64,000 bases of DNA from Escherichia coli (GTDB lineage: Bacteria > Pseudomonadota > Gammaproteobacteria > Enterobacterales > Enterobacteriaceae), in the NCBI RefSeq assembly GCF_003334385.1, contig NZ_QOWN01000003.1. One strand, 5' to 3'. Shown here piece by piece: positions 61,802 through 63,566 of this stretch. The notes beneath the pieces are model-generated. The model saw only the letters and a program-made list of their open reading frames with translations. It was not told the origin of the DNA and did no database searches. The translations under genes were made by a program, and so were the position numbers. Positions within the stretch are counted from its first letter, which is position 1; each line of letters begins with the position of its first letter.

Positions 61802-62482
61802 CTATCGCCATTGCTCCCCAAATACAAAACCAATTTCAGCCAGTGCCTCGTCCATTTTTTCGATGAACTCCGGTACCATTTCGTCAAAAACCTCCATGTA
61901 TTTTTCATCCCGTTCGACCACGACATAATGCAGGCCTTCACGCTTCATACGCGGGTCATAGTTGGCAAAGTACCAGGCATCTTTTCGCGTCACCCACATG
62001 CTGTACTGCACCTGGGCCATGTAAGCCGACTTTATGGCCTCGAAACCACCGAGCCGGAATTTCATGAAATCCCGGGAGGTAAACGGGCATTTCAGTTCAA
62101 GGCCGTTGCCGTCACTGCATAAACCATCGGGAGAGCAGGCGGTGCGCATACTTTCGTCGCGATAGATGATCGGGGATTCAGTAACATTCACGCCGGAAGT
62201 GAACTCAAAGAGGGCTCTGGCGTCGTTCTCGTACTGTTTTCCCCAGGCCAGCGCTTTAGCGTTAACTTCCGGAGCCACACCGGTGCAAACCTCAGCCAGC
62301 AGGGTGTGGAAGTAGGACATTTTCATGTCAGGCCATTTCTTTCCTGAGCGGGGTTTTGCTATCACGTTGTGAACTTCTGAAGCGGTGATGACGCCGAGCC
62401 GTAATTTGTGCCACGCATCATCCCCCTGTTCGACAGCTCTCACGTCGATCCCTGTACGTTGCAGGATAATGTCCGGTGTCAT
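61802..62482 (-). CDS. exo: Lambda-type 5-prime to 3-prime exonuclease (Red alpha)
   Basis: 226 aa [89 protein letters not shown]...; near-identical to lambda Exo as I recall it. Confidence 0.93.
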
Positions 62483-63264
62483 GCTGCTACCTTCTGCTCT
62501 GTGACTTTCTGTTTCAGGAATCCAAGAACCTTCACAGCTTCAGCCTGTGTTAGTTCTGAAGATGTGTAAATGTTGCGGCGAAAAATCTGGGAACAGAGCG
62601 GCAACAGGTCGTCATCCCACGTTTTTTCCATGGAAGTAAGAAGGGCGTTAATTTCCGACATGGTTTCTTCGTTAACCGGGGTGATGTCGCGTTCCGGCTG
62701 ACGTTCTGTAGTATATGCAGTATTTTCGACAATACGCTCGGCTTCATCCTTGTCATAGATGCCAGCAAATCCGAAGGCCAGGCGAGCACACTGAATCATG
62801 GCTTTGTGCCGTAACATCCGTTTGGGATGCGACTGCCACGGTCCGGTGATTTCTCTGCCTTCGCGGGTTTTGAATGGTGCGCGGCGACATTCATCCATCC
62901 ACTCGGTAACGCAGATCGGGTGATTGCGATCTTTGCGGTAAATCCGGCATGTACAGGACTCATTGTCCTGCTCAAAGTCCATGCCATCAAACTGCTGGTT
63001 TTCATTGATAATGCGGGACCAGCCATCAACGCCAACCACCGGAACGATGCCGTTCTGCTTGTCAGGGAAGGCGTAAATTTCTTTCGTCCAGGGATTAAGG
63101 CCGTACTGGTTGGCGACGATCAACAATGCGATAAATTGCGCATCGCTGGCATCACCTTTAAATGCCGTCTGGCGAAGAGTGGTGATTAGTTCCTGTGGGT
63201 CGACAGAATCCATGCCGACACGTTCAGCCAGCTTCCCTGCCAGCGTTGCGAGTGCTGTACTCAT
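62479..63264 (-). CDS. bet: Lambda-type single-strand annealing protein (Red beta)
   Basis: 261 aa [128 protein letters not shown]...; near-identical to lambda Bet. Confidence 0.93.
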
Positions 63265-63269
63265 CCGTT

Positions 63270-63566
63270 TTATACCTCTGAATCAATATTAATTTGGTGA
63301 CGGGCGATGGTTTCAGCCATGTAGCGGATGTGTTCTGCCATGCGTTCCTGAAAATCGACATCGTCATCAAATGCACGGGAAATAGCTTTTTTGCTGGCCC
63401 CGTGACGTTGCAGATTATCGATGCATAGCGATTCAAACAGGTGTTGGGGCAGACCTTTTTCCAGGTCGTCTGCCAGCTCAGCTTCAGTTTCTTCACGGGC
63501 AATTTGCTGGTAGTGTCGTGCCCATGACTGCTCTTCAATGCGATCGGGGATAAGCCAGGCATTCAT
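63270..63566 (-). CDS. gam: Lambda-type Gam (RecBCD inhibitor), 98-aa form
   Basis: [98 protein letters not shown]; close to lambda GamS. Confidence 0.9.

Follow-up and report, generated by a model that had tools for sequence, protein, structure and literature searches.

A sequence-intact lambda-type Red module at the left end of a probable POCJ13-like prophage in ynfG of Escherichia coli, with IS186 upstream of gam

Shigella phage POCJ13 was shown by experiment to integrate site-specifically into ynfG of E. coli MG1655 (PMC4193171), and phage 75/02 Stx occupies the same ynfG site (PMC5447701). The phage records are classified in the Sepvirinae, genus Diegovirus. POCJ13, 75/02 Stx, PhiR5_2 and phiSTEC1589-Stx1c share one layout at this end of the genome, which runs int, (xis), DUF4222, exo, bet, gam and a gene similar to the N-terminal part of recE (hereafter the RecE-N-like gene); in POCJ13 and PhiR5_2 the annotated order is int, DUF4222, exo, bet, gam and a 'RecE family' gene. 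The K-12 prophage DLP12, which carries intD-xisD-exoD, is inserted not in ynfG but at the tRNA gene argU; its exo is a stub of 278 nt, and bet and gam are gone. In Rac, RecE and RecT form an analogous exonuclease-annealase pair. The nuclease domain of RecE is C-terminal, of the PD-(D/E)XK type, and spans residues 564-866, whereas its N-terminal domain has no known function except that linear-linear recombination is enhanced in full-length RecE (PMC11611040). In a survey of 275 lambdoid phages and prophages, recombinases were present in 51%, and 68% of these were of the Red-beta family; Gam was carried by 56 phages (PMC3784561).

We examined a stretch of E. coli DNA of 64,000 nucleotides (the window), the end of which had been noted for a complete exo-bet-gam module. 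The window end is best explained, with a probability of roughly 0.88, as the integration-proximal part of the early-left operon of a lambdoid prophage (Sepvirinae) that resembles POCJ13 and 75/02 Stx, is integrated in ynfG and carries intact Red genes.

The bacterial part of the window (1-60025) is collinear with K-12 MG1655 from 1,723,092 down to 1,663,068, and collinearity ends at window position 60025, which corresponds to K-12 position 1663068. Alignment to K-12 ynfG identifies the last part of this segment (59486-60025, minus strand) as the 3' part of ynfG, truncated by the prophage. The 7-bp sequence CTTTAAA at 60019-60025 is common to attL in the window, attB in K-12 and attR in the relative SW071611, and is thus the attL core; the core of attP would be the palindrome CAACTTTAAAGTTG. 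The deposited genomes of POCJ13 and PhiR5_2 start at the equivalent of window positions 60027-60028, and from there to about 61810 (~60027-61810) the window is collinear and ~99% identical with their left ends. According to the alignment and a translation read by eye, codons 1-26 of ynfG, which hold its first CxxCxxCxxxC iron-sulfur motif, now lie at the other end of the prophage, and RefSeq labels ynfG as partial in the relatives. The insertion disrupts ynfG and parts ynfH-dmsD from ynfEF, with ~60 kb of prophage between them, judged from the relatives. An ORF of 184 aa with a GTG start (59486-60040) begins in phage-derived DNA and may specify a YnfG that lacks its N-terminus. In SW071611, a second element with an integrase gene interrupts the neighbouring ynfE as well.

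The prophage integrase gene (60078-61241, minus strand) encodes a tyrosine integrase of 387 aa that matches the PHROG integrase families. It is identical to the Int of POCJ13 at 385 of 387 positions and 87% identical to DLP12 IntD over the full length. Together with the CTTTAAA core in ynfG, this places the element among the ynfG-integrating prophages of the IntD/POCJ13 type. Compared with the ynfG-integrating Sepvirinae phages, the window has 99% identity in the integrase, 93.6-98.3% identity in the DNA of the Red module and the same ynfG site. The initial annotation was right that the integrase is not lambda Int, to which it has 22% identity over a partial alignment, and the attachment site of lambda differs as well. 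DLP12 combines an integrase of the same family with xisD and an exo remnant of 95% identity to the window exo, so that K-12 already has, in decayed form, an IntD-type integrase together with a lambda-type exo.

Two smaller ORFs lie between the integrase and the Red genes. The first (61097-61468, minus strand, 123 aa) overlaps the start of int and encodes a putative excisionase. It matches PHROG 2907 ('excisionase') over its full length (E=1e-43), and its N-terminal helix-turn-helix (HTH) matches TIGR01764 just above the cutoff. Its status is uncertain because in the relatives RefSeq annotates only a 66-nt HTH fragment at this position. The second ORF (61503-61763, minus strand, 86 aa) encodes a DUF4222 protein (PHROG 285, unknown function), annotated as DUF4222 in the relatives and POCJ13 alike. 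Scans of positions 1-64000 gave no Rfam family at the gathering threshold and no tRNA gene.

The Red module itself consists of three contiguous minus-strand ORFs, found in the ORF listing at exactly the coordinates that the initial annotation had given for the module: exo (61802-62482, 226 aa; Red-alpha or lambda exonuclease), bet (62479-63264, 261 aa; Red-beta single-strand annealing protein) and gam (63270-63566; RecBCD inhibitor in its 98-aa form). The reading frames of all three are free of internal stops in the window. The gene order gam-bet-exo is undisrupted, bet and exo overlap by 4 nt and gam and bet are separated by 5 nt, both as in lambda, and the gam ATG is preceded, at a distance of 8 nt, by the Shine-Dalgarno sequence GGAGG. 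With lambda (NC_001416) as the reference for both protein and DNA, Exo has 220 identities in 226 residues (97%, E=1e-174) and Bet 246 in 261 (94%), so that their description as near-identical over the full length holds. For Gam it is generous: the protein has 82 identities in 98 residues (84%) to residues 41-138 of lambda Gam, which is annotated with 138 aa, and it is without the 40-residue N-terminal extension.

Profile and structure matches agree with these comparisons. Exo matches PDB entries 1AVQ and 6M9K over its full length; Bet matches 7UJL with residues 1-178 and 8TFU and 6M9K with residues 182-261, and scores 168 bits against the equivalog model TIGR01913 (bet_lambda; cutoff 76.95), in agreement with a Red-beta annealase whose N-terminal domain binds DNA and whose C-terminal domain binds Exo and SSB. 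Gam has no NCBIfam match, but covers all positions of PHROG 259 (1-98 of 98) and matches 2UUZ and 5MBV over its full length; the crystallised chains have 98-99 residues, like the ORF in the window. Six substitutions separate Exo from lambda Exo (T90A, N168D, I189V, A197E, S198V and I202M), and R28, L78, D119, E129 and K131 are unchanged; D119, E129 and K131 we take to be the catalytic residues of the PD-(D/E)XK fold of lambda exonuclease (1AVQ). The core of the Exo-Bet interface consists of Exo L91, F94 and T95 and Bet L223, I227, F249, L250, Q252, K253 and E256 (PMC6393309). All of these residues are kept in the window proteins. Only T90 of lambda Exo, at the edge of the interface and of the Bet-binding helix, is altered, to alanine. 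Gene order, lengths, junctions and catalytic and interface residues are otherwise the same as in lambda. Judged by sequence, the three products classify as a lambda exonuclease, a Red-beta annealase and a RecBCD inhibitor, and the window carries an ordinary, sequence-intact lambda Red module.

The module is set in surroundings other than those of lambda. DNA identity to lambda falls from 96% in exo to 92% in bet and 83% in gam, and homology to lambda DNA is confined to 61804-63545 (92.4%), where it stops at the borders of the Red module. Lambda has orf60a (DUF1317) and kil/cIII at the flanks, whereas in the window the DUF4222 gene takes the place of orf60a and the RecE-N-like gene lies directly upstream of gam. 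In the relatives, the Red genes are situated downstream of genes for a CI-like repressor and an N-like antiterminator, a Rac-like kil and the RecE-N-like gene. The drop in identity, its end at the module edges and the Rac-like upstream genes bear out the view of the initial annotation that this is a mosaic lambdoid phage. A direct example of the exchange of this module between prophages is found in strain ML35 (L007 18212-21765), where an exo-bet-gam of 100% identity stands at another chromosomal site, beside a different, oppositely oriented tyrosine integrase next to sapC.

Upstream of gam, the window remains 100% identical to SW071611 up to position 63924 and diverges after it. The last 76 nt (63925-64000, minus strand) are identical at 76 of 76 positions to the reverse complement of K-12 IS186A and represent the right end of an IS186 that runs off the window. 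The insertion, which the initial annotation had missed, sits within the RecE-N-like gene, 358 nt upstream of the gam start codon; the window edge, inside IS186, is 434 nt upstream of that codon. It is in this insertion that the window copy differs from the POCJ13-type phages. What is left of the RecE-N-like gene is a 3' remnant (63563-63924, minus strand) of ~120 codons, whose stop overlaps the start of gam. The intact gene has 690 codons in the relatives, where it is found at L001 24164-26236 in SW071611, at 3537-5585 in POCJ13 and at 3536-5608 in PhiR5_2. The transposase gene of IS186 is co-directional with gam-bet-exo, the order on the minus strand being IS, remnant ORF and gam. None of 5426 complete E. 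coli genomes contains this IS186/recE-like junction.

The 'exodeoxyribonuclease VIII / RecE family' label given to this gene in the relatives is misleading, because its product is without a nuclease domain. The intact 690-aa protein aligns to RecE residues 50-555 only, with 54% identity, and covers positions 1-618 of the 883 positions of the PHROG 607 profile. The C-terminal nuclease domain is absent, and the protein does not belong to exonuclease VIII. We considered the remnant as a second exonuclease and rejected this, since the homology covers the non-nuclease N-terminal domain only. The Red genes of the window hold the same operon position as recE and recT in Rac, and compared with a Rac-type operon, the RecE nuclease domain and RecT are in effect replaced by Gam, Bet and Exo.

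If the products act as their homologs do, Exo trimers would resect double-strand ends 5' to 3', and Bet would load onto the 3' overhang by means of its C-terminal domain and anneal it to complementary single-stranded DNA. Bet may likewise anneal an oligonucleotide at the lagging strand, and a Gam dimer would block RecBCD. Since the genes for a CI-like repressor and an N-like antiterminator precede the Red genes in the relatives, Red would be repressed there in the lysogen, and its transcription would begin upon SOS induction. In the window's strain, the gene that directly precedes gam carries an IS186 insertion. The presumed early-left promoter, the repressor and the antiterminator map beyond window position 64000 and are seen only in the relatives, and IS186 separates the Red genes from this presumed promoter. 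Transcription past IS186 could take several forms: antiterminated read-through from the phage promoter is possible, as is a polar effect of the IS or a deletion that the IS marks, and so is read-through supplied by the IS itself.

Consensus promoter and terminator scans of positions 59900-64000 and of IS186, with shuffled sequences as controls, bear on these possibilities as weak negative evidence. Between the end of IS186 and gam there was no convincing promoter site, scan counts being not above those of shuffled sequence, and within IS186 there were 0 promoter-like sites. On the gam strand, no terminator-like site was found from the insL1 stop to the end of the IS or from there to gam, and the literature yielded nothing relevant on an outward promoter of IS186.

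The strongest competitor of the POCJ13-like reading, which we nevertheless consider unlikely, holds that IS186 marks a truncation or rearrangement that has left an orphaned remnant, in which int-xis-exo-bet-gam is cut off from the phage promoter and regulators and is non-inducible, with the ORFs intact. The IS does abut the module, its junction is unique among the 5426 genomes and the interval from the IS end to gam is devoid of promoter-like sites; DLP12, with intD, xisD and a 278-nt exo stub, shows a possible end state of such a process. However, the six prophage ORFs in the window are all intact and match those of relatives with ~62-kb prophages at 99-100% identity, which points to a simple, recent insertion and not to prolonged decay, and with a co-directional transposase gene, read-through into the Red genes may still occur. 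Members of the lineage can be defective in any case, as indicated by the damage in the prophage of the closest relative: in the ynfG prophage of SW071611, the replication-initiator gene is frameshifted, the tail-fiber gene is truncated and an IS1 is present (L001 30988-31399; L008 11412-12869, 20630-21327 and 41192-43864).

It would be quite improbable, in our assessment, that IS186 has rewired the operon such that transposase read-through gives low constitutive Red expression independent of induction. The IS reads forward on the minus strand into the remnant ORF and then into gam, which has its own strong GGAGG ribosome-binding site, and the scans predicted no terminator on the way. Orientation and absent predicted terminators are the only grounds for this proposal, though, and neither an outward promoter nor any promoter-like site was found in IS186. 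Transposase genes of IS elements are usually expressed very weakly. At least as improbable is the bolder form of the same idea, in which IS186 uncouples gam-bet-exo from the repressor and the resulting low constitutive Red expression makes the strain hyper-recombinogenic. The same holds for a separate possibility, namely that the RecE-N homologue, which precedes gam in this phage family, serves as an accessory factor of Red. Were the latter true, it would parallel the enhancement of linear-linear recombination in full-length RecE.

The initial annotation had joined the lambda Red genes to an IntR-like integrase of the Rac/Qin type, and, despite the Rac flavour lent by kil and a RecE N-terminal homologue upstream in the relatives, we dismiss this as next to impossible, since the integrase shows 24% identity to Rac IntR (235 columns) and to Qin IntQ (311 columns), in both cases over partial alignments, as against the 87% to IntD and 99% to POCJ13 Int given above, and since the insertion is in ynfG and not in ttcA (Rac) or the Qin site.

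With a coverage of at least 80% required in genomes and phage records alike, the 1765-bp Red module is present in 3137 of the 5426 complete E. coli genomes (58%), mostly at 90-95% identity, and in 185 phage records, which include many Stx phages. The ynfG-int-Red layout occurs in 84 genomes, several of them at 99.9-100% identity. The Red module, the phage family and the ynfG site are thus already known, mosaicism of lambdoid phages is textbook knowledge, and the find is real but ordinary. Beyond correct annotation it matters little: among phage recombination systems Red has been studied most, and most E. coli genomes and many sequenced phages have it.

For strain engineering, the resident exo, bet and gam are homologous to the genes on Red plasmids, and induction of the prophage might give background recombination. 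Standard recombineering strains use prophage-borne Red. The suggestion of the initial annotation that Red activity after induction could raise recombination with short homologies is accordingly plausible and reasonable in principle. Such an effect would not be special to the window's strain, given the presence of the module in more than half of the complete genomes, and here it is uncertain because of the IS186 upstream of gam.

Compared with MG1655, the host backbone has an identity of 99.97% in a stretch of 43 kb and of 99.94% in its final 4.9 kb; no indels were seen, and the 12 kb in between are as long as in MG1655. This makes the host a very close relative of K-12, yet not identical to it over the parts compared. 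Within this backbone, the repeat region of rsxC (13998-14519) consists of internal tandem repeats of ~96 bp with 88-91% self-identity, which give staggered hits against K-12.
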